NCBI GenBank assembly: GCA_035505655.1
Contig: DATJQP010000085.1
Location: 6,395 to 70,394 of the forward strand
Reading direction: 5' to 3'
Length of the DNA stretch: 64,000 bases
From: Bacteroidota bacterium
GTDB lineage: Bacteria > Bacteroidota > Ignavibacteria > UBA10030 > UBA8401
Part shown: in pieces, positions 11,467 through 49,429 of the stretch
Layout of the letters: the number at the start of each line of letters is the position of its first letter
Position numbering within the stretch: the stretch's first letter is position 1
Notes under the pieces: model-generated
What the model saw: the letters and a program-made list of their open reading frames with translations, nothing else
The model's database searches: none
Told to the model about the DNA's origin: nothing
Made by a program: the position numbers and the translations under genes

Positions 11467-11614
11467 GAGGATAATATCCGTGAAAGAGGGAAAAGTTACA
11501 CCAGAAAAGAGTGCCCGCAGCCGATCATGATGGAGACGTGGAAAGGAAAAAAGGATCAAATTCTAAAAAAGGACTTGACATCAAATGAAAACTTTTGTAT
11601 CCTTTCCCTGAAAG

Positions 11615-11635
11615 TTATCGGTAAAGTAAACGATA
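11615..11635 (+). promoter_or_regulatory. Conserved motif copy A (AAAGTTATCGGTAAAGTAAACGATA) upstream of the GH28 gene. It contains the near-palindrome TTAYCGGTAA.
   Basis: It matches the motifs at 34840-34860 and 37214-37234 (22/23 identical core). It lies in the divergent intergenic region between the ECF sigma gene and GH28. Confidence 0.35.
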
Positions 11636-11905
11636 AAGTTCAGGACGCCCAGAATTCTCATTGATCGTCTATTTATCCCCCAAATCTCTCAGAAACGCCA
11701 GGTTTTTTCCTTCACATCGCAGTTGCTCACTCGCTATACCCTTTAACTTCGGACCCGGATGGGTTCTCTCACATCCTGACCAGTTCAAAATCGTCGCCTC
11801 CGCTCCGGCTTCCGGCACTCCTCGGGAGGTTCAAAATAGAATTGCATTCTATAGATGAACTTTGCTACAACCTCTGAGTCGCCATTCATGTTGATTTCCG
11901 GCCTC

Positions 11906-13495
11906 ATGAGAAGGATCCTATCCCTCCTCCTTGGCGTCGTTCTATGCTCCAGTCCTGCTTTCTCGCAGGGTGGAGGAGCGAACTCCCCGGGAATTTCCCC
12001 GCAGATCCTTCCGATCGATGCTCCCTTCCCGTTGGCTCAGTTTATCAAACCCTCCTTTCCCGAAAAACGATTTTTGATCACTGACTTTGGCGCAGTCGCT
12101 CGCCCCGGAATCAAGAACACCGCCGCCATCCAACGCACGATCGATACCGCCGCCTTTGCGGGTGGCGGATGCGTCGTCGTTCCTCCGGGAGAATGGCTCA
12201 CAGGAGCAATCCGCCTGAAGAGCAACATCGATCTGGTCCTTGAAAAAGGGTCCGTTCTCCTTTTCAGCCAGGATCCTGCCGATTACCTCCCGGTCGTTTT
12301 TGCCAGGCATGAAGATATCGAATGCTACAAGTACTCCTCTTTCATCTACGCCGATCATTGCTCGAACATCGCCATCACGGGCGAGGGAACGCTCAACGGC
12401 CAGGGAAAGCCATGGTGGGAATGGAAAACGTCGAAGAGGTCGTGCGAGGAAGAGCTTGAGGCGATGGGAGCGAAGGGTGTCCCCGTGACCGAGCGGGTCT
12501 TCGACGGAAGCAATGGCCGCGTCCTTCGGCCGGCATTCTTCCAGCCGATGAATTGCACCAATGTTCTTGTCGAAGGGGTGACCTTTCTCTATGGCGCCTT
12601 CTGGACGATCACACCCACGTACTGCGACAAGGTCATCATCCGGGGAGTCACCGTCAGGACAGAGGGCTCGTACGGCCATACGCCGAACGGAGACGGCATC
12701 GATCCCTCCTCCTCGACAAATGTTCTCATCGAAGAGTGCACGTTTGACACCGGCGACGATTGCATCGCCATCAAGTCGGGGAGGGACGCGGACGGGCTGC
12801 GGGTTCATGCACCGACTGCGAATGTCGTCATCCGTCATTGCGTCGGGCTTGCCGGTCATGGAGGGATTGTCGTCGGGAGCGAAACGTCCGGGGGAATCCG
12901 TAATGTCTATGCAACAGATTGTACCTTCCACGGCACCGAGAGGATCGTGCGGATAAAGACGGCTCGTGGCCGTGGCGGAGCGATCGAACATATGTGGTTT
13001 CGAAACCTTACAGCCGATACGATCACCCAGGAAGTCATCCACATCAACATGCTCTATACCGGCAATCGCCTTCCTGCCGAGAAGGTAACGCCGACAACGC
13101 CGACGATCAGCGACCTTCACTTCGCGAAGATATCGTGCGGCTGGGGAAAAAGGAGCGCGATACAGATTACCGGGATTCCTGAGATGCCGGTTTCACACAT
13201 CACCTTCGATTCCATAACGATCGGTTCGGCAGAAGGAGTTGTCTGCAGCGACGCGGACAACATCACGTTCAGAGATCTGTCCGTTCACCCTCAGTCGGGT
13301 CCGCTTCTTTCTTTTGTCGATTGCGTAAAAGTGACCGTCACCCGGATCGTCATTCCGGAAGGTCACGAATCAATTGTGCTTGCCGAGGGTCCAAAGACGG
13401 GAGCGGTGACGATCTCTCCAGCCGGGGGAACGGGAAGGAATATCGCTGTGCACTATGGCCCCGACGCTTCTCATGATGCCGTGAAAATCGAATGA
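11906..13495 (+). CDS. Glycoside hydrolase family 28 (polygalacturonase-like).
   Basis: Signal peptide MRRILSLLLGVVLCSSPAFSQ. GH28 beta-helix motifs: 'GEGTLNGQGKPWWEW', 'NGDGIDPSSSTNVLIEECTFDTGDDCIAIKSGRD', 'GHGGIVVGSETSGGIRNV', 'RIKTARGRGGAIE'. The 11855 ATG is an alternative start. Confidence 0.85.
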   Translation: MRRILSLLLGVVLCSSPAFSQGGGANSPGISPQILPIDAPFPLAQFIKPSFPEKRFLITDFGAVARPGIKNTAAIQRTIDTAAFAGGGCVVVPPGEWLTGAIRLKSNIDLVLEKGSVLLFSQDPADYLPVVFARHEDIECYKYSSFIYADHCSNIAITGEGTLNGQGKPWWEWKTSKRSCEEELEAMGAKGVPVTERVFDGSNGRVLRPAFFQPMNCTNVLVEGVTFLYGAFWTITPTYCDKVIIRGVTVRTEGSYGHTPNGDGIDPSSSTNVLIEECTFDTGDDCIAIKSGRDADGLRVHAPTANVVIRHCVGLAGHGGIVVGSETSGGIRNVYATDCTFHGTERIVRIKTARGRGGAIEHMWFRNLTADTITQEVIHINMLYTGNRLPAEKVTPTTPTISDLHFAKISCGWGKRSAIQITGIPEMPVSHITFDSITIGSAEGVVCSDADNITFRDLSVHPQSGPLLSFVDCVKVTVTRIVIPEGHESIVLAEGPKTGAVTISPAGGTGRNIAVHYGPDASHDAVKIE

Positions 13496-16464
13496 GCTCA
13501 CGCCCGACAGACCGGAAGAATGACTTTCGACGCCAGGGCGCATCGGCAACTGTGGTCGATGTGAGGGCATACGAAGGGGAGACGCTTCGCGCGATTCTGA
13601 TCTTAGTTGCGGTCATTCTGTTTTTCGTGAATGCCGGGCCTCTGGTTGGTCAGACCATGGGGAAGGTCTCCGGGACGATCGTCGACAGGGACACCAAGGA
13701 ACCGCTTGTCGGATGCAACGTCGTCATCCTCGGAACAAGGCTTGGAGCGACGACCGACATCGACGGCTCGTTCTTCATTCTCAACGTCCTCCCCGGCGAG
13801 TACAACCTTGAAGCATCGATGATCGGCTACCAGAAGGTGATGCTCGAAGAGGTGATCGTCAATTCAGGAAGGACGACGACGGCGAACTTCGTCCTGACGT
13901 CGACAACCCTTGTGCAGGGGGAGGTGGAGGTCGTGGCGAAAAGGCCCGATGTTCAGCCGGAGAAAACCTCGACGAGCGAAATTGTCAGATCGGACGACGT
14001 GAAGATGGTCGCGGGGATGCGGGATGTCACCGATGTCATCTCTCTTGCGGCCGACGTCACCGACGGTCACTTCCGCGGCGGTCGGACGGGGGAGGAGCTC
14101 TATACGCTCCAGGGGATGGGGATCGTGAATCCCCTCGACGCGACGAGCGCTTTCGTTCCGATCCTCAGCGCCGTCGAGGAAGTCGAGGTGTCAACGAGCG
14201 GGTTTGGAGCGCAATACGGGAACGCCCAGTCTGGTGTTGTTAACATCACCATGAAGGAGGGGAAGTCGGATAAATGGAACACGAGCTTCGATGCACGCCT
14301 CCGGCTGCCCGGGAGAAAGACCTTTGGACCGAGTGTCTACGATCCGACCGCGAATCCGTACCTGGCGAAGCTCCTGAACATAAATTTCTGGCTCACGGGA
14401 GATGCCGAAACGAGCAATCAGCCCCTCTATTCAAGCATGGGTTCGGGCCTCTCCAACAGGTACGGGGGCGACACCGCAGTGATCCAACAGGTCGCCTACA
14501 CCTTGTGGAGGATGCAGACGAAGAGGGATCTCGACCTGAGCTACGGCAAGAGCATCGACTATGCCGTCGAAGGGGGAACGGGGGGACCGATCAACGATAT
14601 GATGAGGATGTTCGTCGCATTGCGGTCGAACGTCGTCAACCCGGAGTTTCCGACGCAGGATCCTGACGTCGACCGCCAGCTCATGGCGAATGTCGCGACC
14701 GACTTCGGGAAGGGGGCGACGCTCCTCGTCAGCGGCGGATATTCACAGAGCTTCTCCAACGTCTTTCCGAGCTCCGACGGCCTCGGATTCTACAAATGGC
14801 TCTGGGACAGAAACCTGGACATCGAGTATCAGAACACCATCAACGCGGAGTTCGGCGCGAGGTTTTCCAAAGCTCTCAGCGCGAGCACCTTCTACGAGGT
14901 GAAGCTCAACGCCCTGTCGACAAAGCTGAACCTCGGCTCCTCTCCGTGGCCGAGCGCTCTCCCCGATTCGCTCATCATCAAGCCCGAAAACACCAACACC
15001 GTTCTTACCGCGCCGGTCACCGGTCCCGATCTCTTCACCTACCTGGCCGGCAACGACGATTTCAGGCTCGAGAAGACTCTCACCGTTTCGTTCGAGGCGT
15101 CGATGACGAGCCAGGTGACCAAATCCCATCTCATCAACGGCGGCGTCCAGGTCAACGGTTATCAGATCGAGTCGGACGATGAGCTGAGCACAAGCGGCAC
15201 GGTCCAGACCCGCGACTACACCGCAAAGCCGATCGAGGCGGGATTCTACCTTCAGGACAAAATGGAATTCGAAGGGATGATCGCGAACGTCGGACTTCGG
15301 CTCGACCTGTGGAATTCCAACAAGGACTATTACGTCAACACCTTCGACCCGTTCGCGGTCATCAACGACTCGGGAAAAGTCGTTCGGAGCATCGCGTCGG
15401 CCGAATACGCGCGGACTCCGCTCATCGGCCGGTTACAGCCGAGGGCGGGAATTTCCTTCCCGGTTTCCGTGAACACGGTCTTCCATCTCAACTACGGCGC
15501 GTACATGCAGCGGCCGTCGTTCCAGTACATCGTGACGACGAGCGTTCAGCCCCAGTACAACGAACCGGTGACGCTCGGCAACCCGCGCCTCGAGCCGGAG
15601 ACGACGAACAGCTACGACGTGGGGATCATGCAGGGACTCGGAGAGGGGATGACGCTTGACATCAGCGGATACTACAAGGATGTGAAGAACCTTATCGAAC
15701 AGGCGACCTTCACCGATGTCGTCAGTGCAGTGACCTACAACACCTACTACAACAGAGACTACGCCGACATCCGGGGTTTCAGAGCGACCCTTGCCAAACG
15801 GAGCGGAGAGATCGCGGCCTCGATCAGCTACCAGTACAGCGTGGCGACGGGGAAGAGTGCGACCGTTTCCGAAGCGCCGCCGCTCTTCAGGCGGGATTCG
15901 ACGGGGACGGTGACGACGGATCTCGGAGGCGTGCCGAACAGGGATATTCTCCTTGACTTCGACCGGACGCACAACCTCGTCATCACGCTTGCCTATTCCA
16001 CCCCGAAGGAATTCGGTCCGATGATTGCCGAGGCGTATCCGCTGGAGAACTTCACCTTCTCGGTGAACGCGTTTGCGAGAAGCGGGCGTCCCTACACTTC
16101 CTCGAAAGATCCGACGAACATCAATGCTGCCCGCACTCCCGCGGAATACAACACGAATATCCGTCTGACGAGAACATTCGACGACCTTGCAGGGGTTAAG
16201 ACGTCAGTCTACGCCGAGGTGTTCAACCTCTTCAACAACAAGATTTTGAACTATACGTACCTGTTTGCCGCGACGACCGCGAACCAGGCCAATCCCAACA
16301 TCCAGCCGTACGAGAACTACGCGTTCAACGACCCGCAGCGTGGAGTTCTTTACTGGAATACTTCGAACTCGGCGAGGCCGATTGCGTTCCCGGTCGACCA
16401 GTCGTTCCTCATTTACGACAACCAGCCACGATCGTATAACGTCGGAGTCAGCGTTGAATTCTAG
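13492..16464 (+). CDS. TonB-dependent outer-membrane receptor with an N-terminal CarboxypepD_reg-like domain (SusC/RagA-like architecture).
   Basis: CarboxypepD_reg region 'GKVSGTIVDRDTKEPLVGCNVVILGTRLGATTDIDGSFFILNVLPGEYNLEASMIGYQKV'. A plug region follows ('RSDDVKMVAGMRDVTDVISL...'), then a long beta-barrel with a C-terminal aromatic-rich end. The start overlaps the GH28 stop (ATGA); the exact start is uncertain. Confidence 0.85.
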   Translation: MSSRPTDRKNDFRRQGASATVVDVRAYEGETLRAILILVAVILFFVNAGPLVGQTMGKVSGTIVDRDTKEPLVGCNVVILGTRLGATTDIDGSFFILNVLPGEYNLEASMIGYQKVMLEEVIVNSGRTTTANFVLTSTTLVQGEVEVVAKRPDVQPEKTSTSEIVRSDDVKMVAGMRDVTDVISLAADVTDGHFRGGRTGEELYTLQGMGIVNPLDATSAFVPILSAVEEVEVSTSGFGAQYGNAQSGVVNITMKEGKSDKWNTSFDARLRLPGRKTFGPSVYDPTANPYLAKLLNINFWLTGDAETSNQPLYSSMGSGLSNRYGGDTAVIQQVAYTLWRMQTKRDLDLSYGKSIDYAVEGGTGGPINDMMRMFVALRSNVVNPEFPTQDPDVDRQLMANVATDFGKGATLLVSGGYSQSFSNVFPSSDGLGFYKWLWDRNLDIEYQNTINAEFGARFSKALSASTFYEVKLNALSTKLNLGSSPWPSALPDSLIIKPENTNTVLTAPVTGPDLFTYLAGNDDFRLEKTLTVSFEASMTSQVTKSHLINGGVQVNGYQIESDDELSTSGTVQTRDYTAKPIEAGFYLQDKMEFEGMIANVGLRLDLWNSNKDYYVNTFDPFAVINDSGKVVRSIASAEYARTPLIGRLQPRAGISFPVSVNTVFHLNYGAYMQRPSFQYIVTTSVQPQYNEPVTLGNPRLEPETTNSYDVGIMQGLGEGMTLDISGYYKDVKNLIEQATFTDVVSAVTYNTYYNRDYADIRGFRATLAKRSGEIAASISYQYSVATGKSATVSEAPPLFRRDSTGTVTTDLGGVPNRDILLDFDRTHNLVITLAYSTPKEFGPMIAEAYPLENFTFSVNAFARSGRPYTSSKDPTNINAARTPAEYNTNIRLTRTFDDLAGVKTSVYAEVFNLFNNKILNYTYLFAATTANQANPNIQPYENYAFNDPQRGVLYWNTSNSARPIAFPVDQSFLIYDNQPRSYNVGVSVEF

Positions 16465-16474
16465 AAGGTTTGCC

Positions 16475-18697
16475 ATGCGCATCGCACGGTTCGTAGTGAG
16501 AGGAGCTTCGACGGAATTGCTCCTCTGCTGCATGCTCTTCGCCTTCTCAACTGCGCAGACGCGGGCGCCGCAGACCCACACGAGGGGGATGCTTCACCAG
16601 ACGGTCTATAATACGGGAGAGCTCGGCCGCGCGTTCGACGGCGGGCAGACCGGGATGACGGCGGGGTACTCGTCGATGGAGTGGCCGCCGAACTCTCACA
16701 TCATTCTCGACGGCAGGGACTACCCCGGACAGCACAACTCGATGGGAGGCGGAGTCTACCTTGCGGGGGTGCTCAACGGGACGCGCCAGACCGTTGCCTG
16801 CGGCGCCATCGCGACGGCGGGAAATGGTCAGACGGTTCCCATAGAAGGTGTCTACAGTTTCCCGATATCAAACTCCCGGACCGAGAACTACCCCGTGTTG
16901 AGCAACGGAGATCTCAACCCGTCATACAATCCCAACGAAGCCGAGGAGACGATTGTTGCGACATGGAACACGCCGCTCAACATCACCGTCACGCGAACGA
17001 GCCGCGCGTGGAGTTACCCGGGTTACAATTGCTTCATCATCTACGAGTACGATTTCGTCAACGCAAACCCAACCCCCATTACCGATGCGTTTGTCGGATG
17101 GGGATACGGGCTCTGTCCCTCGATGTTCGGCTACCAGCGGTTGTACAACGAGTGGTCCGAGAGCGCCGATATGCGCTCGAAGGACATGTATGCGCGTTTT
17201 GACCTCAAGCGCTGGATGTCGTACAACCAGGAGCGCATCGGCAAACCGGACGCGACGTACTTCGACTATTGGTCGGGCCCCGGGGACAGAGGAGGGCTCG
17301 ATTCGCCGCAAGCCGTGGGTTTCCTTCCTCTCTATTATGATCACGACCACCTCGCCGTGAAGGGACAGACGAATTACCCTGTTGCCTCAGACAGCGCCTA
17401 CGTCTGGGACGAAACGAACAGGATCAAACAGCCCTACACGAACCGGTACGAAAACAGGAACGTCGACATCACGAAAATCCAAAGCTGGACCGATATCACG
17501 ACACGAAAGACCCAGGCTTTCGGCGGGTCGTCCGACTCGACAAGTTTCCTTGCAACAAACGCGGGAGACTGGGCCTATTGGAAGGGAAGGGCAAAGCCGA
17601 CGTCGAACCTTGGATGGAAGCAGCCGGTGGTGCACGGGTACGTGTTCGGACCGTATACGTTCCCTCCAAACGAGCATGTCCGATTTTCGATCGCTGAAGT
17701 TGTCGGGTACGGCGCCGGCGACGCAGGCGACACGGTCTATGACGACCTCGGTGGCGGAATCGAGACGACCGGGAATGTCTTTCATCAGGTCGACAGCTGG
17801 TACAACGAACTCCACTATTCGACCGCCGGAGGTTCACCGTCCGCAATCGGAAGCTCGTATCTCCGGACCCACGAGCTTCCGTGGTACGTGACGCCCGGCG
17901 TAGTATCGATACGCGACGTTGCCGACAGAGCCATCCAGATGTACACCGGTGCGGCGGCTCCCATCAAACACGATTCGGTGCAATTCGATCCCCGATACAC
18001 CCCCCAGACCGGAAATTACGCCAACACGATCCCGATCCCTATTCCGGCGCCGGTCTTCACCGTCCAGAACACAAGCGCGGGGGTGAATCAAATTACCTGG
18101 GGTTCGCAGGTGGAGTCGTTCTCGACGCCGAGGCTCCATGCCCCGTTCAGCTACTACATGGCGTACCGATCGACGAGCGCGCTCGGACCATGGAAGCTCA
18201 TGGACAGCATCGGGAAGGAAGACCCCCGGTACTGGCGCGATACCTCCTACGTCCTCTACGATCACGACAGCAACGCGGGCGAGGATGCGTACTATATCAT
18301 CTACTCGGTCGACGGGCTCGGCATGAGGAGTGGCGTCACCAACCTTACGGCGCACAACACGCAGGCGCCGGCCTCCCTGACGCTTAACAAGGTCTGGGTA
18401 GTGCCGAATCCGTTCATCGTGTCGTATGGCGGGAACGCGACGTCGACGGCCGGGGACGTGACGGACAAGATCGGCTTTTTCGGACTTACGAAGAAATGCA
18501 CGATCCGGATCTTTTCCTACAGCGGTGCGCTCGTCCAGACCATCGATCACGATACTCCGCCGACCTCCGGCTACTCGCAGGAGTGGTTCCAGATCTCCCG
18601 GAACAATCAACTGATGGCCTCCGGGGTCTACTTCTTCACGGTGGACGATGCCGCGACCGGAAAACGGGTCACGGGAAAGTTTGTCGTTATTCATTGA
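16475..18697 (+). CDS. Hypothetical secreted protein (740 aa) in the position of the TBDR partner. Its C-terminal beta-sandwich resembles a T9SS CTD / FlgD-Ig-like domain.
   Basis: Signal-like N-terminus MRIARFVVRGASTELLLCCMLFAFSTAQT. C-terminus 'VVPNPF...CTIRIFSYSGALVQTIDHD...GVYFFTVDDAATGKRVTGKFVVIH'. No SusD/TPR features. The start is 11 nt after the TBDR stop. Confidence 0.6.
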   Translation: MRIARFVVRGASTELLLCCMLFAFSTAQTRAPQTHTRGMLHQTVYNTGELGRAFDGGQTGMTAGYSSMEWPPNSHIILDGRDYPGQHNSMGGGVYLAGVLNGTRQTVACGAIATAGNGQTVPIEGVYSFPISNSRTENYPVLSNGDLNPSYNPNEAEETIVATWNTPLNITVTRTSRAWSYPGYNCFIIYEYDFVNANPTPITDAFVGWGYGLCPSMFGYQRLYNEWSESADMRSKDMYARFDLKRWMSYNQERIGKPDATYFDYWSGPGDRGGLDSPQAVGFLPLYYDHDHLAVKGQTNYPVASDSAYVWDETNRIKQPYTNRYENRNVDITKIQSWTDITTRKTQAFGGSSDSTSFLATNAGDWAYWKGRAKPTSNLGWKQPVVHGYVFGPYTFPPNEHVRFSIAEVVGYGAGDAGDTVYDDLGGGIETTGNVFHQVDSWYNELHYSTAGGSPSAIGSSYLRTHELPWYVTPGVVSIRDVADRAIQMYTGAAAPIKHDSVQFDPRYTPQTGNYANTIPIPIPAPVFTVQNTSAGVNQITWGSQVESFSTPRLHAPFSYYMAYRSTSALGPWKLMDSIGKEDPRYWRDTSYVLYDHDSNAGEDAYYIIYSVDGLGMRSGVTNLTAHNTQAPASLTLNKVWVVPNPFIVSYGGNATSTAGDVTDKIGFFGLTKKCTIRIFSYSGALVQTIDHDTPPTSGYSQEWFQISRNNQLMASGVYFFTVDDAATGKRVTGKFVVIH

Positions 18698-18713
18698 GCG
18701 AGAGATCGATTCC

Positions 18714-19742
18714 ATGAACATGACGAGGCGATTTGGAGTCTTCCTGGCGGCGATGATGCTGGCCTCCGTAAGCGCGGATGCGCAGAAGGTCGGAAGCACG
18801 TCGATGGAATTCCTCGAGGTGATGCCGGTCGCCCGGGCGACCGCCCTCGGCGACGCCTACAGCGTCTGGGCGACGGGTGCGGACGCCGTTTTCTGGAACC
18901 CGAGCGGGCTCGCCGTCATAGAGCATCAGGAGCTCTCCTCGACCTTCGTGAAATGGATCTTCGATACGCGACAGGGAGCTCTTTCGTACGCCACACCGCT
19001 CGGGGCACTCGGCGCCGTCGGCCTTCAGATCCAGTATGTCGACTACGGCGAATTTGAGGAAGCTGTTGCGACCCGGCCGTATATCGACCAGATTGAGAAC
19101 CAGGGACTCACGGGAAACACCTTCCATCCATTCAGCTATCTCGTCGGACTCAGTTACGCCCGGAGCCTGACGGACAAGTTTTCGACGGGGCTTTCGGTGA
19201 AGTTTGCTCACGAGTCGCTCTACAACGGTCAGATGGTCCTTGCGCAGGTGAGTCCGATCGCGACGGAGGAAGTGAAGACATGGGCGAGTGGGGTGATGTT
19301 CGATTTCGGGATGCGCTACAACACCGGCTATCACACGGTCCAGATCGGAGCATCGGTGCAGAATTTTGGACCCAATGTGACCTACGCAATTCAGTCGAGC
19401 CCGGTGCCGTTGTTGTTCCGATGGGGCATCGCCGCGGATGTCATCGGAAAGGATGCTCTCCTTCTCGAGGACGGCGAGAACCGCGTGGGCATCGCCTTCG
19501 ATCTCTACCAGCCGAACGACTACGCACAACAGGAACATCTGGGTGTTGAGTATGAGTACGCGGGGGTGCTCGCCCTCCGGGTCGGGTACAAGTTTAACTA
19601 CGACTATGAGGGGCTCACCCTCGGAGCGGGAGTTCAGCAACCGATCGGGTCCGTGCTCCTTGCTTTTGACTACAGTTACGGTTCAATCGGTCCTTACCTC
19701 GGCAATGTTCAGCGAATAAGCCTCGGAGCGAGAATTCAATGA
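18714..19742 (+). CDS. PorV/PorQ-like (UPF0164-like) outer-membrane beta-barrel protein.
   Basis: Signal MNMTRRFGVFLAAMMLASVSADAQ. The N-terminal motif 'KVGSTSMEFLEVMPVARATALGDAYSVWATGADAVFWNPSGLAV' matches the PorV-family signature (G-T-S-x-x-FL-x-I-x-x-x-AR-A-x-A-x-G-x-A...DA-x-A-x-(Y/F)-WNP-(A/S)-GLA). Alternating amphipathic beta strands; the protein ends '...ISLGARIQ'. Confidence 0.55.
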   Translation: MNMTRRFGVFLAAMMLASVSADAQKVGSTSMEFLEVMPVARATALGDAYSVWATGADAVFWNPSGLAVIEHQELSSTFVKWIFDTRQGALSYATPLGALGAVGLQIQYVDYGEFEEAVATRPYIDQIENQGLTGNTFHPFSYLVGLSYARSLTDKFSTGLSVKFAHESLYNGQMVLAQVSPIATEEVKTWASGVMFDFGMRYNTGYHTVQIGASVQNFGPNVTYAIQSSPVPLLFRWGIAADVIGKDALLLEDGENRVGIAFDLYQPNDYAQQEHLGVEYEYAGVLALRVGYKFNYDYEGLTLGAGVQQPIGSVLLAFDYSYGSIGPYLGNVQRISLGARIQ

Positions 19743-21223: not shown

Positions 21224-21298
21224 GCCCGCCTGCTTTGCGAGCGCGATGAATATATCAACACCAATTGTTTTATCCAATTCTACGGAAGGAGATTGACC

Positions 21299-22831: not shown

Positions 22832-22893
22832 TTTGCCGCACGAAGAACAGGCCGGGGACGCAGACCGACTGCGGCCCTGAAGGGAAGGATTTC

Positions 22894-24612: not shown

Positions 24613-24618
24613 ATCTGC

Positions 24619-25833: not shown

Positions 25834-25854
25834 TATCCCGCGGAAGTCGGAGCG

Positions 25855-26952: not shown

Positions 26953-26954
26953 GA

Positions 26955-29623: not shown

Positions 29624-30879
29624 AAAGATGGACGTTGGTTTCGCTCTCTTTGGTCTTTGGAATCTCGGCGCTCATTGCCGCCGGGCCCCTCGAACTGACA
29701 GTTGCTCAGGATGGAAGCGGCCAGTACCGGACGATCCAGGCAGCGCTCGATGCGATTCCGGCGGGGGGCCATGGAAGAGTGACTATTCTGATCAAGAACG
29801 GTTTATATCACGAGAAACTGCTGGTGACGAAAAGCAATGTGGCTCTCGTCGGAGAGAGCCGCGACAGCACGCGCATCGTCTTCGCCGAGTTGCGTGAAAT
29901 CTGGCGAAAGGCCCACAACAACAGCGACTGGGGTTCGGCCGTCATCAACATCGACTCTGCGGTCACAGATCTCACGATCGCCAATCTGACGGTCTACAAT
30001 AATTACGGTACACTCTACGGCTCTCACGAGCATCAATATGCGGTCTGGGGAACCGGCACACGTATTATCATCATCGATTGCAACATCCTCGGAGACGGTG
30101 GAGATACGCTCAGCCTGTGGAACAAGACCGACGGAATGTACTACCACTCGAACTGCTATTTTGAAGGATGGGTCGACTTCGTCTGCCCCAGGGGATGGTG
30201 CTACATCACGGACAGTCGTTTCTACGGTCATAATCTGAGCGCGAGCATCTGGCATGACGGCAGTTCGAGCAAAGACGAGAAGTTCGTCATGCGCTATTGC
30301 CGATTCGACGGAGTTCCGGGATTTCCTCTTGGCCGCCATCATCGGGATGCACAATTCTATTTGCTGGATTGTATCTTCTCGAGGGAGATGGCCGATCGTC
30401 CGATCTACGCACCGCTCAATTCGCCGAACCTCGTTCCATGGGCATGGGGCGTGCGACATTATTTCTACAATTGTCATCGTGAAGGGGGAGACTACGGCTG
30501 GTTTGCGGACAACCTCTCAAGTGCTGAAGGATCTCCCGCCCCCTCGAACGTAGACGCGGCCTGGACCTTTGGCGGACGATGGGATCCTGAAACAGCGATG
30601 CCACCCGTCCTCCCGACAGTCTCTTTGCCTCATCCGAGGGATGCTGCCTACGGTATTCGGGCCGGAGAGCTTACATTGCATTGGTTGCCGGCAAGAAAAG
30701 CGGTCGCGCATCTGATATACTTCGGGAAGGATGAAGAACCGGCGCTTATGAAGAGTCAGCCCGAAGCGGCGGTGCAGGTGAAGGGACTTGATGCGAAGAC
30801 GATATACTACTGGAGGGTTGACGAAATTGCAGGATCCGACACTCTCCGGGGACCGATTTGGCATTTCACGACAGAGTAG
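29620..30879 (+). CDS. Pectinesterase (carbohydrate esterase family 8).
   Basis: Signal MKRWTLVSLSLVFGISALIAA. 'LTVAQDGSGQYRTIQAALDAIPAG', 'QYAVW..GTRIIIIDCNILGDGGDTL', 'YFEGWVDFVCPRGW'. The start overlaps the upstream stop (GTGA). Confidence 0.85.
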   Translation: MKRWTLVSLSLVFGISALIAAGPLELTVAQDGSGQYRTIQAALDAIPAGGHGRVTILIKNGLYHEKLLVTKSNVALVGESRDSTRIVFAELREIWRKAHNNSDWGSAVINIDSAVTDLTIANLTVYNNYGTLYGSHEHQYAVWGTGTRIIIIDCNILGDGGDTLSLWNKTDGMYYHSNCYFEGWVDFVCPRGWCYITDSRFYGHNLSASIWHDGSSSKDEKFVMRYCRFDGVPGFPLGRHHRDAQFYLLDCIFSREMADRPIYAPLNSPNLVPWAWGVRHYFYNCHREGGDYGWFADNLSSAEGSPAPSNVDAAWTFGGRWDPETAMPPVLPTVSLPHPRDAAYGIRAGELTLHWLPARKAVAHLIYFGKDEEPALMKSQPEAAVQVKGLDAKTIYYWRVDEIAGSDTLRGPIWHFTTE

Positions 30880-30964
30880 CCGGCGGCTCCAGCATGGAGC
30901 GCCGAATACTGAGAAGACGAATCTCTTTTTGAGTACACCTCGACAGACGATACGGAGGATCGAG

Positions 30965-33900
30965 ATGAGAACGAAATTCTACACGGCAATCTCTCTAACC
31001 CTGATGATGCTGTTGTTTGGCGTTCAATTTCTCTCAGCCCAGGCAGCAGGAGACTATATGTCGGCCGGGAGCGGTAACTGGGGTGACGCCACCACGTGGC
31101 AGACATACAACGGCACGCAGTGGGTTCCGGCTTCAACCCCTCCCCCCGATACGTCGGGAACCGTCACCATTCATGCCGGCAACACAGTGACAATAGCCGC
31201 CGGCAACCCCGATACGATCAAAGGGGCGGCTATCGTCGTCAACGGCTACCTTAAGGATCAGGCCTATCTCAATTTCGTTTCGGGCACAATGACCGTGAAC
31301 AACGGAGCGACGTACGAGATGGCTCATCCCTCGAATTCAGGTCAAGGCATACCGACGGCGACATGGAACACCGGATCGACGTGTCTGCTCACGGGGCTCA
31401 CCGGTTCGACAACGGGAATTAATGCCGGTCAGGCGTTTTACAATCTGACGATTAATTGCCCATCGATGACCTCCAACCTCAATCTTGGCTGGAACAGCGG
31501 TACGCAGAACATCGGGGGGAACGTTACAGTTCAGGGGACAGGGGCTTCGTCGAGGCTCTATTTCTGCGCTCCGACTGCAGGGGGCTCGGATACAGTGAAC
31601 ATTGCCGGGAACCTCATCGTCGACGGAAGCGCAACCACCTCTTCATCCCAGATCGCCTTCTCATCGAACGGATCGGGAAACGGAGGCACGACGATTATCA
31701 TCAACATCGGCGGAAACGTCACGGTGACGGGGAACGCGGCGAATAACGCATACACGAATTTTTCGGTCTCGCGCGGAAGTCAGGGAGGCAGCGGAACGAC
31801 ACTCTGGAACCTCTACGGCAACTTCACGATGACGAATGCCACCACGCAGAACTCGAACACAGGAGGAATAGCCAGGTTTGTCTTTTCGAAAGCGGGGAGG
31901 CAGGCGTTGAGCTTCTCGGGAGTGAATTTTGCCGGCGGATGTCCGATCGAAGTCAAGAACGGTTCCACGCTCAGCATGGGGACGAGCGTCCTTGGCAGTT
32001 CCGGGATCTTCATGGTCGATTCGGGGGCGACGCTCGAATGCGGACTCTTTGCTGGGCTTGATAGCGCCCTCTCGAACAGCGGGACGAAGACTCTTAGCAG
32101 CCAGGCGAGCTACACCTTCAATGCCACGTCGGCTCAGGTAACCGGATCCCTTTTGCCGACGACGGTTAACAACCTGACCATCGATAACCCGGCCGGTGTC
32201 ACGATCGGGAAGGCAGACACCGTTACCGGCACTCTTACGCTGACGAACGGTGTGTTGAAGATCGGGTCGAAGACGATCATTGCGAACTCAGCGGCGGGGG
32301 GGGCTGCGACGAGTTATGTCGCGACAGACAGCGGCGGAACACTTCGGATAAACGGCGTAGGCTCCACACAAAAGATCTTTCCGATCGGAATCACCGGCGC
32401 CTATGCCCCGGTCTGGATCACGAACAGCGGCAGCGTCGACACGATGACCGCCTTCGTAGTTTCGGATACGATGGGGGGAACGAAGAATCAGGGGGGGAGG
32501 GTGAAATTGAAATGGACGATCGCGGAAAATACGCCCGGCGGGAGCAACGCGATTCTCCAATTCGGATGGGTAGCACCTTCAGAAGATCCCATCTTCTCAG
32601 TGAACCGCGCCGGGAATGCAAAGATCTTCAACCTGTCGGACACCGCTCAGGCAGGAAGCGGATCCTACACCTCCCAACTCTTCAACGCACCTTTTACGAT
32701 TTCGCGCGGGGGAATCTCCTCGTTCGGAACCTTCGCGGTCGGCAATTTTACGGGGTTCGTGGCGGGGGATGGAGACTACCGTTCCCATCAATCGGGCCCA
32801 TGGTCAAACGTGAACACGTGGGAAAGGAACAACGGAACGACCTGGATTTACCCTGCTCCGTCGGCTCCAACGACGACAGACAGCACCATCGCGATTCAAA
32901 CCGGGCATATCGTTGAAGTCACCGACAGCGCGGCCGTGGATCAGGTGACTGTCAATGCCGGCGCGACGCTCAAGATCGATTCCGCAAAGACCCTCGTCCT
33001 GGCCGACGGCACCGGAACCGACCTGACCGTACTCGGCACCTTCGTCAACGGCGGCAACATCACCGTGAACACTGGAGCGAGCATCGTCGTTGCGAGCGGC
33101 GGTGTTTACGAGCATGCTCTCAACGGAGGGACCCTCCCGACAGTTTCCTGGAGCGCCGGATCCGTATGCCGGATTACCGGCATCACGAATGCAACATCCT
33201 TCAACGGAGGAACAAAACAGAATTTCAGCAATTTTGAGTGGAATAGTCCCGCTCAAACCGCGAACACCGTTTTCGGGTTCTCCGGCGACACCCTCTCGGG
33301 ATACCTCAAGATCGTCAGCACAAACACCGGTCAGCTCTCGATGTTCGGCGATCTCAACGGTTCGGCCGTGATCAACGGAGACCTGATACTGCAAGGCGGC
33401 ATGTTCAGTGTTCAAGGGACCAGCTCCGCGACGGTGGACACCGTTTATCACAACGGAAATATTTCGGTGACCGGCGGCACTCTTGCCGTCAGCCGCGGAA
33501 GCCAGGCCGGCTCGGGGAAAACAGTCTGGTACCTTTCTTCGGGGAACATGTCGGTTGTCAACGCGACGGCAATGAACGGAACGACGACGACCCATGGCGG
33601 AGCGGCGAAATTTGTATTCGCCAAAGCGGGAATCCAGTCACTCACTCTCTCCGGCGTGACCTACGGGACCGGCGGCCTGCCGATCGAGGTTTCCCCGGGA
33701 ACGACTCTTGCCATGGGGACGAACAGGATCGGAGGAGCCGGAACCTTCGCACTCTTGCCGGGTGCCACGTTGGAGTCGGCCAACGTCTACGGTCTCGACA
33801 GCTCGATCGCCCCGACGGTTGCGCGATCCTTCAGCAACGGCGCAAATTACACCTTCGACGCGCTCACTCCTCAAGTGACGGGTGCGACTCTTCCCGACAC

Positions 33901-34792
33901 AGTCAACAACCTGACACTGGCCGACACGCTTGGAGCGAGGCTTTCTTCCAACACCTCGGTGAAAGGAGTGCTGGCCCTTCTTGCCGGGAAGCTTTCGATA
34001 GGGTCGAAGCACCTCACGGCCGCCGGGATCACCGGGGTCGCGTCGTCACGGTATCTCGTCACCGATAGCGGGGGTACGGTGAGCCGGTTCGGGGTCGGTG
34101 CCGTTCAGACCCTCTTCCCGGTGGGGACCCCCTCCGCGTACTCGCCGCTTTGGATTACGAACGCGGGGACCGTTGACACATTTTCAGTCGGGGTGGCGCC
34201 GGATAGCGGCGGGACGAGGAAGGGGAATGGTCGTGTGAAACTCAAGTGGGCTGTCACTGAGCAGACTCCGGGAGGAAGTCTGGCGACGCTTCAGTTTGGA
34301 TGGTTGGCTGGACAGGAAGACTCCGCCTTTGCGGCGAGCCGCAATACGAACGACCTCATCGTCCATCTCCCCGACACGGCGCAGGTGGGAACAGGAGCCT
34401 ACACGACTCAGTTCAGCACACAGCCGTATACGCTCTCGCGCGGAGGGATCACCGCATTCGGAACTTTCACCGTCGGGAAGCTCGGCGCACTGACGGGAGT
34501 TGATAACGAGCGCTCGGATCTACCCAAAGTGTACAGCCTCAGTCAAAACTATCCCAATCCTTTCAACCCGACAACGCGGATCGCCTACGACCTTCCGAAA
34601 GATGGTCAGGTGACTCTCATTGTTTACAACGTGCTCGGACAGCAAGTGGTGACTTTGGTGGACAGGGTTCAGGAAGCTGGGAGCTACACCGTGACATTTT
34701 CCTCCGAACATGGGATCGCCTCCGGGGTCTATTTCTACGTTCTCCGGGCAGGCGATTTCGTTTCCGTCAAGAAGATGATGCTTATCAAATAG
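30965..34792 (+). CDS. Giant secreted beta-helix/adhesin-like protein (1275 aa) with an internal tandem duplication of a ~600-aa module and a T9SS CTD.
   Basis: SD GGAGG upstream. Signal MRTKFYTAISLTLMMLLFGVQFLSAQA. Module 1 begins 'AGDYMSAGSGNWGDATTWQTYNGTQW'. Module 2 begins 'GDGDYRSHQSGPWSNVNTWERNNGTTW'. Each module ends with 'GVG(S/A)(T/V)Q(K/T)(I/L)FP(I/V)G...Y(A/S)P(V/L)WITN(S/A)G(S/T)VDT...GRVKLKW...QFGW(V/L)A'. C-terminal CTD 'SQNYPNPFNPTTRIAYDLP...LIVYNVLGQQV...GVYFYVLRAGDFVSVKKMMLIK'. Confidence 0.7.
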   Translation: MRTKFYTAISLTLMMLLFGVQFLSAQAAGDYMSAGSGNWGDATTWQTYNGTQWVPASTPPPDTSGTVTIHAGNTVTIAAGNPDTIKGAAIVVNGYLKDQAYLNFVSGTMTVNNGATYEMAHPSNSGQGIPTATWNTGSTCLLTGLTGSTTGINAGQAFYNLTINCPSMTSNLNLGWNSGTQNIGGNVTVQGTGASSRLYFCAPTAGGSDTVNIAGNLIVDGSATTSSSQIAFSSNGSGNGGTTIIINIGGNVTVTGNAANNAYTNFSVSRGSQGGSGTTLWNLYGNFTMTNATTQNSNTGGIARFVFSKAGRQALSFSGVNFAGGCPIEVKNGSTLSMGTSVLGSSGIFMVDSGATLECGLFAGLDSALSNSGTKTLSSQASYTFNATSAQVTGSLLPTTVNNLTIDNPAGVTIGKADTVTGTLTLTNGVLKIGSKTIIANSAAGGAATSYVATDSGGTLRINGVGSTQKIFPIGITGAYAPVWITNSGSVDTMTAFVVSDTMGGTKNQGGRVKLKWTIAENTPGGSNAILQFGWVAPSEDPIFSVNRAGNAKIFNLSDTAQAGSGSYTSQLFNAPFTISRGGISSFGTFAVGNFTGFVAGDGDYRSHQSGPWSNVNTWERNNGTTWIYPAPSAPTTTDSTIAIQTGHIVEVTDSAAVDQVTVNAGATLKIDSAKTLVLADGTGTDLTVLGTFVNGGNITVNTGASIVVASGGVYEHALNGGTLPTVSWSAGSVCRITGITNATSFNGGTKQNFSNFEWNSPAQTANTVFGFSGDTLSGYLKIVSTNTGQLSMFGDLNGSAVINGDLILQGGMFSVQGTSSATVDTVYHNGNISVTGGTLAVSRGSQAGSGKTVWYLSSGNMSVVNATAMNGTTTTHGGAAKFVFAKAGIQSLTLSGVTYGTGGLPIEVSPGTTLAMGTNRIGGAGTFALLPGATLESANVYGLDSSIAPTVARSFSNGANYTFDALTPQVTGATLPDTVNNLTLADTLGARLSSNTSVKGVLALLAGKLSIGSKHLTAAGITGVASSRYLVTDSGGTVSRFGVGAVQTLFPVGTPSAYSPLWITNAGTVDTFSVGVAPDSGGTRKGNGRVKLKWAVTEQTPGGSLATLQFGWLAGQEDSAFAASRNTNDLIVHLPDTAQVGTGAYTTQFSTQPYTLSRGGITAFGTFTVGKLGALTGVDNERSDLPKVYSLSQNYPNPFNPTTRIAYDLPKDGQVTLIVYNVLGQQVVTLVDRVQEAGSYTVTFSSEHGIASGVYFYVLRAGDFVSVKKMMLIK

Positions 34793-34797
34793 GGCAC

Positions 34798-34840
34798 TCC
34801 TCGCAGAGCGCCGAAAGGGGGTTCTGCGAGGATTTTACTT
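34798..34840 (+). terminator. Rho-independent terminator-like hairpin after the giant CTD protein gene.
   Basis: Stem TCCTCGCAGA (34798-34807) / TCTGCGAGGA (34823-34832) with a 15-nt loop, followed by TTTTACTTT. Confidence 0.45.
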
Positions 34841-34860
34841 TACCGGTAAAGTAAACGGTT
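34840..34860 (+). promoter_or_regulatory. Conserved motif copy B: TTACCGGTAAAGTAAACGGTT (perfect 10-bp palindrome TTACCGGTAA), ~90 bp upstream of the ATG at 34950.
   Basis: Identical to copy C and 19/21 to copy A. Confidence 0.4.
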
Positions 34861-34949
34861 AGAACAAAACTACGGCAGATTTTGGCAAGACCAATAAACA
34901 ACAATTCTCCAGGCATGCGCCATGGAGCAAACTCATCCTTGGAGGTACT

Positions 34950-37088
34950 ATGAAGACAATATTGCGCTCGCTCGCTTGCGCGCTCTCTTTGGTGGGGATT
35001 CAAATCTTTGCGCAAAACACGGGGGACTACCAGACGGCTCAATCCGGCAACTGGAACGATGTGACCACGTGGCAAGAATACAACGGTGGTTGGGGAGTCG
35101 CCGCGACGGTCCCCGATTCCAGCTCCGGCAAGGTAAGCATTCTCAGCGGCCACACCGTGACGATCACGGCAGACGCGGTGGTCGACTCGGTCTTCGTCCT
35201 CTCCGGCGGCTCGCTCATCGTGAACTCCGGCGTGACGGTCACGGTCGGCCCGCCGTACCTCCCGGCTCAGGCGGGAATCGTCGTGAGCGGATCGATGACG
35301 GTCAACGGAACGTATAAGCACGCCAGGGACGGCGGAGCGATCCCGACTGCGACATGGGGGACCGGATCGACTCTCCTCATCACGGGCACAGTCGGCACGG
35401 CTCCTTCGAACGGGAACCAGAACTTTTACAACGTCACGTGGGATTGCACCGGGCAGACGACGTCTGTGAACCTCGGGTGGAGCGGAATCACGATCGGCGG
35501 CAATCTCATCTGCAACAATACCGGTACATCTCAATTTCGATTCACAAACAACAATGCCAACAGCGGAAGCCCTGTCACCATCGGGATCAACGGAGATGTG
35601 ACGGTGAACAACGCTGCCATCGTCTCGCCGACTTCTTCCGGAGCGGCGCTGGTGTACACGATCAACCAGAACGGGAATATTGTTGTCAACGGAACGGCCC
35701 AGCTCTACGTTTGCGGCACGAGCAACACCGGTGCGTACGTCACCTGGAACGTGAAAGGCAACTTCACCGCCTCGTCGACGGCACAGGTAAGATCTTCGAA
35801 TTCAATCTCCCGTTGGACATTTAACTCGGGCGCGACGCAGTCGGTCAATGTCGGGGCAAGCGCTGTTGTGGTGGCCAACGTCATCATGGAAGTGGCTGCG
35901 GGTACGAACGTTCAGCTTAGTGCGCCGCTCACCGTCAACAGGCTCGTCCTCACGAGCGGCAAGATCACCTCGACATCGACGAACAAACTGACTGTCGGGG
36001 CAGTCAACTCGATCACAGGTGGAAGCTCGACAGCCTTTGTCGAAGGGCCTATGACTCACCAGTATAACGTCGCGGCTGCACAGTCATTCTTCTTCCCGAT
36101 CGCGAAGGGGGGGATCTACCGGCCCGTCACCCTTTCGCTGACCCAAAGTGCCACGACAACCTCGAACTACACGGCGGAGATGTTCAACAGCGCACCGGCG
36201 GCGAATAACCTTCCAGGTACCCTCTCCGGAGTGTCGACGGCTCGCTCCTTCACCATTGCGGAAGCTGGAGGTGGTTCGGCCTTTACCGCGGGGACGGTCA
36301 CGCTCAATTATGACAGCGACGACGGCGTTACTGACAACGGCAATCTTCGGGTCGCGAAGAACGATGGATCCGGCAACTGGGTGGACCTCGGCGGAACCGG
36401 ATCCGCGGCAACGACGGGGAGCATTACCTCCGCGACGGCGTTCACCGATCTCACGAGCGGCACGACCTTCACACTCGCGAACAACGTCGGGGGGACCAAT
36501 CCTCTGCCTGTTGAGCTGACGAGCTTCGCAGGGAGTGCTGACCGGCTCAACGCGACTCTCACGTGGACGACAGCGACAGAGGTCAACAACCGAGGCTTTG
36601 ATATCGAGCGAAAGCCCTCCGTTGCAGCTTCACAGACGCCGGCTTCGTGGACTAAGGTCGGGAGCGTGGATGGATCCGGAACAAGCAATGTGGCTCACGG
36701 CTATTCCTTCACGGACCGCAACCTGACGGCCGGGATCTATTCGTACCGCCTGAAGCAGATTGACAGAGACGGCGGCGTCAGGTACTCCGAAAGCATTGAG
36801 GTCGAGGTAGGGATGGTTGCGAAAGCGCTTAGTCTCTCCGGCAACTATCCGAACCCGTTCAATCCTACGACGACTATCGAGTTCTCGATCGCCAAGGACG
36901 GGAGGGCTGCGGTGAAGGTCTATAACACCCTCGGTCAGGAAGTCGCGCAGCTCTTCAACGAAACCGCGCAGGCTGGGAGGCTTTATCAGGTCACCTTCAA
37001 CGGGGATCGTCTCCCGTCGGGCGTCTACTTCAGCGTTCTCGAAGCAGGCGGCCAGAAACTGGTGAAGAAAATGCTCATGGTGAAGTAA
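34950..37088 (+). CDS. Secreted beta-helix/adhesin-like family protein with a 'LPVELTSF...NNRGFDIER' domain and a T9SS CTD.
   Basis: SD GGAGG. Signal MKTILRSLACALSLVGIQIFAQ. N-module 'TGDYQTAQSGNWNDVTTWQEYNGGW...NGNQNFYNVTWDCTGQ'. 'PLPVELTSFAGSADRLNATLTWTTATEVNNRGFDIERK'. CTD 'SGNYPNPFNPTTTIEFSIAKDGRAAVKVYNTLGQEV...GVYFSVLEAGGQKLVKKMLMVK'. Confidence 0.7.
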   Translation: MKTILRSLACALSLVGIQIFAQNTGDYQTAQSGNWNDVTTWQEYNGGWGVAATVPDSSSGKVSILSGHTVTITADAVVDSVFVLSGGSLIVNSGVTVTVGPPYLPAQAGIVVSGSMTVNGTYKHARDGGAIPTATWGTGSTLLITGTVGTAPSNGNQNFYNVTWDCTGQTTSVNLGWSGITIGGNLICNNTGTSQFRFTNNNANSGSPVTIGINGDVTVNNAAIVSPTSSGAALVYTINQNGNIVVNGTAQLYVCGTSNTGAYVTWNVKGNFTASSTAQVRSSNSISRWTFNSGATQSVNVGASAVVVANVIMEVAAGTNVQLSAPLTVNRLVLTSGKITSTSTNKLTVGAVNSITGGSSTAFVEGPMTHQYNVAAAQSFFFPIAKGGIYRPVTLSLTQSATTTSNYTAEMFNSAPAANNLPGTLSGVSTARSFTIAEAGGGSAFTAGTVTLNYDSDDGVTDNGNLRVAKNDGSGNWVDLGGTGSAATTGSITSATAFTDLTSGTTFTLANNVGGTNPLPVELTSFAGSADRLNATLTWTTATEVNNRGFDIERKPSVAASQTPASWTKVGSVDGSGTSNVAHGYSFTDRNLTAGIYSYRLKQIDRDGGVRYSESIEVEVGMVAKALSLSGNYPNPFNPTTTIEFSIAKDGRAAVKVYNTLGQEVAQLFNETAQAGRLYQVTFNGDRLPSGVYFSVLEAGGQKLVKKMLMVK

Positions 37089-37099
37089 CCGGGCTCACT

Positions 37100-37140
37100 C
37101 CTCTCCCTTCTTCCTGCAAGGAGGGAGAGGGTTCGGTCTT
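37100..37140 (+). terminator. Terminator-like hairpin: CCTCTCCC-loop-GGGAGAGG followed by a T-rich segment.
   Basis: Stem 37100-37107 / 37123-37130. Downstream is 'gttcggtcttt' and a T7 run at ~37193. Confidence 0.4.
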
Positions 37141-37213
37141 TCATCGACAGATGTTTGCGGCCGGTCCGGAGGGGAATGTGGCTATCAGTGCGGTTTTTTT
37201 GTTGCATTGAAAG

Positions 37214-37234
37214 TTACCGGTAAAGTAAACGGTT
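37214..37234 (+). promoter_or_regulatory. Conserved motif copy C: TTACCGGTAAAGTAAACGGTT, ~95 bp upstream of the ATG at 37329.
   Basis: Perfect palindrome TTACCGGTAA plus AGTAAACGGTT; identical to copy B. Confidence 0.4.
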
Positions 37235-49396: not shown

Positions 49397-49429
49397 TACA
49401 CTACTCTCATTCCACACAAGAGAACTGTC

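Follow-up and report, generated by a model that had tools for sequence, protein, structure and literature searches.

The DNA analysed here is a 64-kb stretch of contig DATJQP010000085.1 (64,000 nucleotides, hereafter the window). It has a G+C content of 57% and comprises a large pectin/galacturonate locus. The bacterium that carries it is an uncultured, Ignavibacteria-like member of the Fibrobacteres-Chlorobi-Bacteroidetes (FCB) group and possesses a type IX secretion system (T9SS). A short element occurs three times in this locus (copies A, B and C), and each copy is intergenic and located 5' of pectinolytic genes. The three copies are a real, non-random repeated element. We consider it probable (roughly 0.7) that they represent the operator array of the LacI-family repressor encoded at 25855-26952, which would control a pectin/galacturonate regulon.

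The 18-mer TTAYCGGTAAAGTAAACG is present as an exact match at positions 11615-11632 (copy A), 34840-34857 (copy B) and 37214-37231 (copy C), always on the plus strand, and dinucleotide-preserving shuffles yield a mean of only 0.06 matches even if up to three mismatches are allowed. A fourth match with two mismatches (34832-34849, minus strand) exists because copy B is palindromic, and the core TWAnCGnTWA was not found besides the three copies across the 64-kb window. The first-pass annotation of this DNA had described a motif upstream of three pectinolytic genes with a 10-bp palindrome in every copy, and both statements hold: the palindrome is TTACCGGTAA, with the version TTATCGGTAA in copy A. 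Its "22/23-nt identical core" was overstated, since the identity between copies B and C spans 21 nt (TTACCGGTAAAGTAAACGGTT) and copy A differs from copy C at three of the 21 positions. The left flank AAAGTTAY of the originally proposed motif exists in copies A and C, which share TGAAAGTTAY, but not in copy B, which reads ACTTTACC at this place. Copy B as a whole is a perfect 22-bp palindrome (34834-34855, TTTACTTTACCGGTAAAGTAAA).

Copy A is located 220 bp upstream of the ATG of a GH28 gene (11855) and about 150 bp from the ATG (11466) of a divergently oriented gene for an extracytoplasmic function (ECF) sigma factor. The distance of copy B to the ATG at 34950 amounts to about 90 bp, and that of copy C to the likely ATG at 37329, which is accompanied by a ribosome-binding site and a signal peptide, to about 95 bp (or 68 bp if the first ATG, at 37302, is taken), in agreement with the 90-95 bp reported before. 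The genes behind copies B and C are indeed paralogous, as the 712-aa T9SS C-terminal domain (CTD) protein encoded behind copy B resembles the N-terminal part of the CE8-CTD product of the next gene; the description of both as giant proteins does not apply to the former. That the conservation is not just a by-product of gene duplication, as had been argued, is supported by the position of copy A in front of a non-paralogous GH28 gene and by the flanks of copies B and C, which are unrelated outside the 21 nt.

The organization of the element becomes apparent from an unbiased set of 80 metagenomic loci, which were chosen by homology to the TonB-dependent receptor (TBDR) of the window and not by the motif, and of which 450 nt upstream per gene were considered. 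The unit CGGTAAAGTAAA was present (up to two mismatches) in 19 of 74 upstream regions, nearly always in tandem, for instance as tatCGGTAAAGTAAC-CGGTAAAGTAAC-CGtt (L175), aatCGTTAAAGTTAA-CGATTAAGTTAA-CGtt (L148) or tagCGGTAAAGTTAC-CGATTAAGTTAC-CGct (L173), and looser scans added a few more. Within 69 non-redundant upstream regions, two A.CG.T hexamers are spaced by 12 bp in 25 cases (0.47 expected) and by 24 bp in seven cases (0.31 expected), and no pairs exist at 11 or 13 bp. The frequency matrix of 23 non-redundant sites reads t.A.CG.TAAAGTWA.CG.TWAAGTaA.(CG).T, and conservation extends to columns outside the search pattern, namely A at -2 (20/23), CG at +24/25 (15/23) and T at +27 (16/23). 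The full element has the consensus TWAnCGnTWAAGTWAnCGnTWAAGTaAnCGnT and consists of two or three CpG-centred, LacI-like pseudo-palindromes with a spacing of exactly 12 bp and AAGT as the linker. From this phasing it follows that the 18-mer of the window extends between two neighbouring CpG centres of the lattice. The anatomy given in the first-pass annotation, a palindrome with a tail, was incomplete; the functional unit is a 12-bp-phased series of A-n-CG-n-T centres, and the supposed tail GTAAACG(G/A)T is the second such centre.

In the window, array A (11610..11641, plus strand) reads GAAAGTTAT-CG-GTAAAGTAAA-CG-ATAAAGTT, with CpG centres at 11619/20 and 11631/32 and with AAAGT at 11611, 11623 and 11635, i.e. 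in 12-bp phase. Array C (37208..37235, plus strand) reads TGAAAGTTAC-CG-GTAAAGTAAA-CG-GTTG and has its CpG centres at 37218/19 and 37230/31. Operator B (34834..34862, not assigned to a strand) consists of the 22-bp palindrome TTTACTTTACC|GGTAAAGTAAA, centred at 34844/45, and a second centre, GTAAA-CG-GTTAG, at 34856/57. Such a lattice can be read in two ways, either as 12-bp direct repeats or as TWAnCGnTWA pseudo-palindromes that share their half-sites. Around each CpG every position is symmetric except for +/-6 and 7 (AG on both sides), and at most sites each centre possesses one perfect half, the other half being degenerate at positions 6-7. Fully symmetric ACTTTACCGGTAAAGT sites are found in copy B, in the loci L001 and L057 and twice in L019, and their existence suggests that ACTTTACCGGTAAAGT is the ideal operator.

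For the comparative analysis we used about 200 related loci (given here by their L numbers). The 18-mer was searched in 185,579 species genomes (one genome per species, 596 Gb), with 8-kb stretches taken around the matches. We obtained 112 exact matches, compared to about 35 expected by chance, with one match per 8-kb stretch and no locus with two. Many of the 112 matches lie within conserved coding sequence, and the non-coding matches examined are located in sugar-utilisation loci. Approximately 17 matches are found 5' of orthologs of genes of the window, in metagenome-assembled genomes (MAGs) of Ignavibacteria-like, Kryptoniota and 'Bacteroidota' origin: in front of GH28 orthologs (L079, L050), of a CE8-CTD ortholog (L051), of an ortholog of the 712-aa CTD protein (L083), of TBDR orthologs (L042, L044, L057, L063 and others) and of LacI orthologs (L008, L052). 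When all related loci are considered, the motif also precedes the CE8-CTD gene in L113 (79% identical in L051/L113) and TBDR orthologs in L117, L119 and 19-24 of about 70 metagenomic loci. In relatives the operator is frequently followed first by the TBDR ortholog. Pairwise alignments of copy A with L079, copy B with L083 and copy C with L113 revealed that conservation is limited to the promoter and the motif, and that the flanks diverge; in L083 only TTAAGTTACCGGTAAAGTAAACGATTA of operator B is kept, and in L051/L113 operator C is kept only over TTTTTGTTG..AAGTTACCGGTAAAGTAAACG. As a side observation, the 18-mer also occurs in a thioredoxin-like coding sequence (..EYEGKA-IIGKVNVD..) of many Bacteroidota (L002, L003, L018, L027, L041, L043, L046, L054, L061, L071, L088, L095, L101), which illustrates that exact-word scans catch conserved codons as well.

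About ten further matches are located 5' of sugar genes of Acidobacteriota, such as genes of TonB-type outer membrane proteins next to UxuA, GH97, an SDR gene following GH2, and an epimerase operon. The perfect 16-bp palindrome ACTTTACCGGTAAAGT is present in two copies, 31 bp apart, in L019. This pair is located between the genes for a GH2 beta-galactosidase and an SDR protein of a Vicinamibacterales MAG (L019:2100-2175, minus strand). A distance of 31 bp corresponds to three helical turns and is the classical spacing of cooperative double sites of LacI-family proteins. In four other acidobacterial loci the downstream gene is on the strand opposite to the 18-mer, which ends 2-3 nt (L014:4075, L017:7893, L066:7545) or about 40 nt (L108:5351) from the annotated start codon. 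In most of these cases a ribosome-binding site would not fit into the remaining space, and either the start codons are miscalled or the mRNA leaders are very short.

The proposed repressor (25855..26952, plus strand) consists of a LacI-type helix-turn-helix domain and a periplasmic-binding-protein-like sugar-binding domain according to Pfam, with the recognition helix VSRVTVSKALRGHSDIS. It reaches none of the NCBIfam equivalog cutoffs and is a generic member of the family, with CcpA and PurR as its best matches among solved structures. Homologs with 60-100% identity are encoded in syntenic GH88-LacI-(DUF4350/GDSL)-GH28-CE8 loci, where LacI is the sole DNA-binding protein. In two genomes the motif is positioned directly 5' of the gene for the LacI ortholog itself, at distances of 15 bp (L008, 59% identity) and 37 bp (L052, 54% identity).

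The operator type also co-varies with the recognition helix, although the sample is small and the comparison qualitative. LacI orthologs of the pectin loci have the helix VS(R/K)VTVSKALRGH and the 12-bp lattice motif, and LacI paralogs with 35% identity, encoded next to other TBDR genes, combine the helix ISPSTVSRALSNH with the operator TGCAAACGTTTGCA. A LacI-like protein of Bryobacterales (33% identity) has the helix VSVVTVSKVLRGH and is encoded in an operon that starts with the identical 18-mer and that encodes an epimerase, a fucose-pyrophosphorylase-like protein, LacI and GH127 (L017). Further Bryobacteraceae homologs with SxVTVSKV/A are accompanied by CpG-lattice-like sites after TTGACA promoters, and GntR from E. 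coli, with KMTVSR, has the site ATGTTACCGATAACAGTTACCCGTAACAT 5' of gntK with two overlapping centres 13 bp apart. The pairs can be summarised as (R/K/V)V-TVSK with the lattice, PS-TVSR with TGCAAACGTTTGCA and GntR KM-TVSR with a TGTTACCGGTAACA-type site. The TGCAAACGTTTGCA operators of the paralogs, which are of the classical kind, were seen at L139:2860-2900 and 3930-3950 and at L165:3900-3925, and a tandem CAACGTTTGCGGCAACGTTTGCGGCAA is located 5' of the LacI gene in L139.

Several features typical of LacI-family operators are thus present. Copy B and L019 have an even, CG-centred palindrome of 16-22 nt, copies A and C are symmetric except for positions +/-6 and 7, and all centres of the 23 non-redundant sites read A-n-CG-n-T flanked by TWA. 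Moreover, the gene of the transcription factor belongs to the locus, and the distances to the start codons and the position 5-16 nt after the -10 hexamer are in line with such operators. The suggestion of the first-pass annotation that the motif is a shared operator, possibly of this LacI protein, is therefore well supported by the conservation at orthologous pectin sites with diverging flanks, by the co-variation of the operator type with the helix, by the location downstream of sigma70-type promoters and by the two sites directly 5' of LacI orthologs.

Upstream of copy A there is a sigma70-type promoter, P_A (11575..11603, plus strand), composed of TTGACA at 11575-11580, a 17-nt spacer and TATCCT at 11598-11603 (10/12 matches). 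Array A begins about 7 nt past the -10 hexamer and, relative to the transcript start, spans roughly +1 to +35. L079 contains the counterpart TTGACA-N17-TATGAT in the orthologous region. In the TBDR-homology set, 16 of 18 phased loci possess TTGACA (up to one mismatch), a spacer of 16-18 nt and a -10-like hexamer, often as TGnTAAAGT; the two loci without such a promoter are not WAAGTW lattice sites. The -10-like hexamer ends 5-16 nt before the first CpG at the promoter-linked phased sites. Due to the promoter directly upstream, the element spans roughly -1 to +35, which is the position of a repressor site.

Many TBDR promoters have the form TTGACA-N17-TGnTAAAGT (L117:1800-1835, L119, L126, L127, L136, L137, L143), and their extended -10 hexamer TAAAGT recurs as the core word of the operator unit that is located 16 nt downstream. 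An interpretation of this hexamer as an additional upstream lattice unit was rejected, as the start-to-start distance is 25 nt instead of 24 nt and therefore out of the 12-bp phase. Sigma70-dependent pausing at -10-like TAAAGT units was also dismissed, because the second unit is usually TTAAGT and not -10-like. The leader that separates the GH28 start codon from operator A (11642-11854) is long, about 215 nt compared to about 300 nt in L079 (1710-1996), with a few conserved blocks, a GC-rich inverted repeat near 11790-11840 and no Rfam match.

We propose that the LacI-family repressor would occupy copies A, B and C. As the sites are located at or just past the start of sigma70-type promoters, the bound repressor would interfere with initiation, with promoter escape or with elongation at an early stage. 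Its release might be brought about by a sugar acid derived from pectin, with galacturonate, an unsaturated uronate or a compound similar to 2-keto-3-deoxygluconate (KDG) as candidates. Since its gene appears to lie inside the operon behind copy A, LacI would be autoregulated from this copy. Binding, repression, effector, operon boundaries and the occupancy of the overlapping centres by dimers are predictions from the arrangement of sites and genes.

Some observations weigh against this assignment, which is based on co-localisation and comparative genomics. In most acidobacterial 8-kb windows with the 18-mer no LacI gene was found; an alternative regulator was not found in them either. Around copies B and C, no promoter was recognised by a consensus scan. 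These two sites could overlap a weak promoter or act as a roadblock; weak -35/-10 pairs using the TAAAGT of the motif were considered for B and C, but their spacings are inconsistent between the window and L113 and we claim none of them. At a distance of 12 bp, two LacI dimers should be in steric conflict, a problem that PMC4052901 raises for 13-bp sites, and simple binding of one dimer per palindrome therefore does not account for the lattice. Finally, the AAGT linker has the sense orientation at 21 FCB sites and the reversed orientation at none, a count that does not represent independent events as the sites are partly orthologous, and a constant orientation is unexpected for a symmetric operator. 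The polarity is not universal, as AAGT is reversed relative to the downstream gene at several acidobacterial sites.

Owing to this orientation, a different transcription factor from outside the locus, which would bind 12-bp direct repeats (CGGTAAAGTAAA)n and could be of the DeoR, response-regulator or AraC-like kind, has to be taken into account. Head-to-tail units with a strict 12-bp period and the expected clash of adjacent LacI dimers (PMC4052901) are in its favour. We nevertheless regard it as unlikely, since the unit boundaries, A-n-CG-n-T with TWA on both sides, are a hallmark of the LacI family, perfect CpG-centred palindromes exist in copy B, L001, L057 and L019, no other regulator gene is syntenic and the operator type follows the LacI helix; the reversed acidobacterial sites indicate in addition that the unit is usable both ways. 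If the LacI-family protein is the binding factor, the 12-bp chain might reflect a binding mode of this family beyond the current structures, which we put forward only as a tentative idea. Dimers at neighbouring centres would have to compete for base pairs. In such a mode the repressor would choose one register, bind alternate centres 24 bp apart cooperatively or distort the DNA locally, and its users would be a LacI subfamily with the helix VTVSK(A/V)LRGH that is common to Acidobacteriota and the FCB group.

Other explanations concern the neighbouring sigma factor, the leader RNA and repetitive DNA. The first-pass annotation had offered an alternative-sigma promoter as a second possibility. 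Indeed copy A neighbours the divergently oriented ECF gene (10963-11466), and copies A and C share TGAAAGTT..N..CG(A/G)T, in which GAAAGTT could serve as -35 and CGAT/CGGT as -10 element. However, copy B lacks the GAAAG element and thus the supposed -35, a perfect sigma70-type promoter ends 5-16 nt upstream of copy A and of more than 20 related sites, which places the motif at or after the transcription start, and the ECF gene is not syntenic: the orthologous sites have no ECF homolog nearby (in L079, genes for NTP_transferase and TauE are found upstream instead), and in Acidobacteria the 18-mer is present without an adjacent ECF gene. An ECF-dependent promoter would be expected to have a GGAAC-like -35 and a CGT-like -10 element with a spacing of 16-17 nt and a link to an ECF gene, and we regard such a promoter as extremely improbable. 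A cis-acting RNA element in the 5' leader, i.e. a protein-binding or attenuator motif, would account for the position within the transcribed leader and for the constant sense orientation in FCB genomes. It is still a quite improbable explanation, as there is no Rfam match in the window, the folds differ between the sites (z-scores of about 0 to -1.25 at the three window copies, none significant) and palindromic as well as reversed versions exist; in several promoters the first unit follows only 3-7 nt after the -10 hexamer, so part of the site is not transcribed. To a REP- or MITE-like repeat (repetitive extragenic palindrome or miniature inverted-repeat transposable element), or a remnant of the duplication behind the two paralogous CTD genes, we give practically no credit. 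It is true that copies B and C precede paralogous genes and that copy B is a hairpin-forming palindrome beside a terminator-like repeat. Yet the flanks of B and C share nothing beyond the 21 nt, copy A precedes the unrelated GH28 gene, orthologous sites in other genera keep the motif only, and the examined non-coding matches of the 18-mer, which is found once per 8-kb stretch, are in sugar loci. A random or REP-like distribution, named in the first-pass annotation as the finding that would speak against its motif, was not seen within the 64 kb, where all three copies are 5' of pectin genes.

The genes of the window were assigned by Pfam searches, which back the identities of the ECF sigma factor (10963-11466, minus strand), GH28, LacI, CE8 and the CTD/T9SS cargo proteins, the latter with Por_Secre_tail domains at several loci. 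From 11.5 to 31.4 kb, P_A is the sole intergenic promoter with a perfect TTGACA, hence the gene string from GH28 to the 1334-aa CTD protein, including LacI, is probably one operon, and P_A would drive the first GH28 gene and probably the whole plus-strand string up to 34792. This proposed operon A (11855..34792, plus strand), delimited by Pfam assignments and short gaps, begins with GH28 (11855), a CarboxypepD_reg outer-membrane protein, an 810-aa protein and the PorV-like and FadL-like proteins, and continues with two CTD proteins, GH88 (24619), LacI, DUF4350, a second GH28 (27833), CE8 (29620) and the 1334-aa CTD protein (30788), all on the plus strand. Promoter or terminator signals inside it are no commoner than expected by chance. 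Directly 3' of the stop codon of the 1334-aa CTD gene and abutting operator B, the sequence contains an inverted repeat, CCTCGCAGA...TCTGCGAGG followed by ATTTTACTTT (34799..34831, plus strand), which is probably a terminator; a simple terminator scan of the plus strand did not call it.

Operator B precedes the gene of the 712-aa CTD protein (34950..37088, plus strand). The proposed operon C (37329..50836, plus strand) would comprise the CE8 pectinesterase-CTD gene (ORF 37302, likely ATG 37329, plus strand), the Pel9-like lyase (41134), the TBDR (42795), a CTD protein, DUF4861 and UxaC. From 49430 onwards, genes for uxaC, kduI, an MFS transporter, kduD, a kinase, UxaE and eda are found.

Some further genes are worth mentioning. 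The outer-membrane cassette within operon A (13492-21223) encodes a 990-aa CarboxypepD_reg protein, the 810-aa protein without a Pfam match, a PorV-like protein (PF19572) and a FadL/Toluene_X-like protein, and this four-gene arrangement is syntenic in L113, L115, L118 and L120. A PorV paralog that serves a single polysaccharide locus may merit attention. The uronate catabolic block at 54064-58951 encodes an unusual combination of proteins, namely UxaE (57698-58951), which is a tagaturonate epimerase of the Thermotoga type, a protein with a Lar_N domain (55206-56477) and a DUF3410-containing 2-hydroxyacid dehydrogenase (54064-55224). The regions 1758-2804 and 4296-5835 contain no listed open reading frame, yet their minus strand looks coding.

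The results provide a model of how pectin degradation may be regulated in an uncultured soil/wetland lineage that depends on the T9SS. The model comprises a repressor with its operators, three promoters or operons and a probable autoregulation, for organisms with almost no regulatory annotation. They also indicate that these bacteria use classical TTGACA/TAnnnT promoters. Furthermore, they add a statistically strong case of overlapping operators, with a distance of exactly 12 bp and up to three centres, to a literature in which such overlaps are deemed unexplained. In other respects the element is an ordinary site of a local sugar repressor. A literature search for the strings TTACCGGTAA, TTATCGGTAA, CGGTAAAGTAAA and TTTACCGGTAAA returned only primers and unrelated matches, and a search on Ignavibacteria, pectin and LacI found nothing relevant.

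Operators of the LacI family are even palindromes with a central CG, and 72% of the transcription factors of this family are autoregulated (PMC4052901). Overlapping sites about 13 bp apart were reported for 110 operons and are functional at gntKU, and they are hard to square with the known structures because the seven base pairs that lie closest to the centre are contacted (PMC4052901). The closest analog of the system described here is gntKU/GntR from E. coli, together with the GntR regulons of gamma-proteobacteria. The half-site words are alike (ATGTTACCGATAACAGTTACCCGTAACAT there, GTTACCGGTAAAGTAAACGG here), the same TTAC-CG-GTAA word occurs at gntK and in our sites, and in both cases two CpG-type centres share a half-site and adjoin an operon for sugar-acid catabolism. 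In contrast, the offset is 13 bp at gntK and 12 bp in 25 of 25 phased pairs here, with up to three centres chained, and the linker is the non-symmetric AAGT, whereas GntR sites have a symmetric odd centre. The LacI protein of the window is also not a GntR ortholog: it shares 23% identity with E. coli GntR, its score with the NCBIfam GntR model is 88 (cutoff 433), and it is far below the cutoff for IdnR as well. Moreover, the regulon concerns pectin and galacturonate instead of gluconate.

The LacI-family regulators of hexuronate metabolism ExuR, KdgR, UxaR and UxuR form six orthologous groups (PMC4052901). They can be compared to the regulator proposed here by family and by the glucuronate/galacturonate theme only. 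None of these groups stems from Ignavibacteria-like or acidobacterial lineages, and their regulons contain only cytoplasmic catabolism, whereas that of the window would include T9SS-secreted pectinases and a TBDR. The canonical LacI O1 operator, the PurR box and the cre site of CcpA share with our sites the even, CG-centred palindrome and the position near or after the transcription start, and canonical LacI/GalR systems also share the local sugar regulon, the transcription factor encoded in the locus, here with probable autoregulation, and the architecture of a helix-turn-helix domain and a periplasmic-binding-protein domain. Unlike these canonical operators, most of the sites here have phased, overlapping centres, and full symmetry is limited to copy B and a few relatives. 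Altogether, the system is of a known kind, a local LacI-family sugar repressor with its operators, and the strict 12-bp lattice is its sole unusual aspect.

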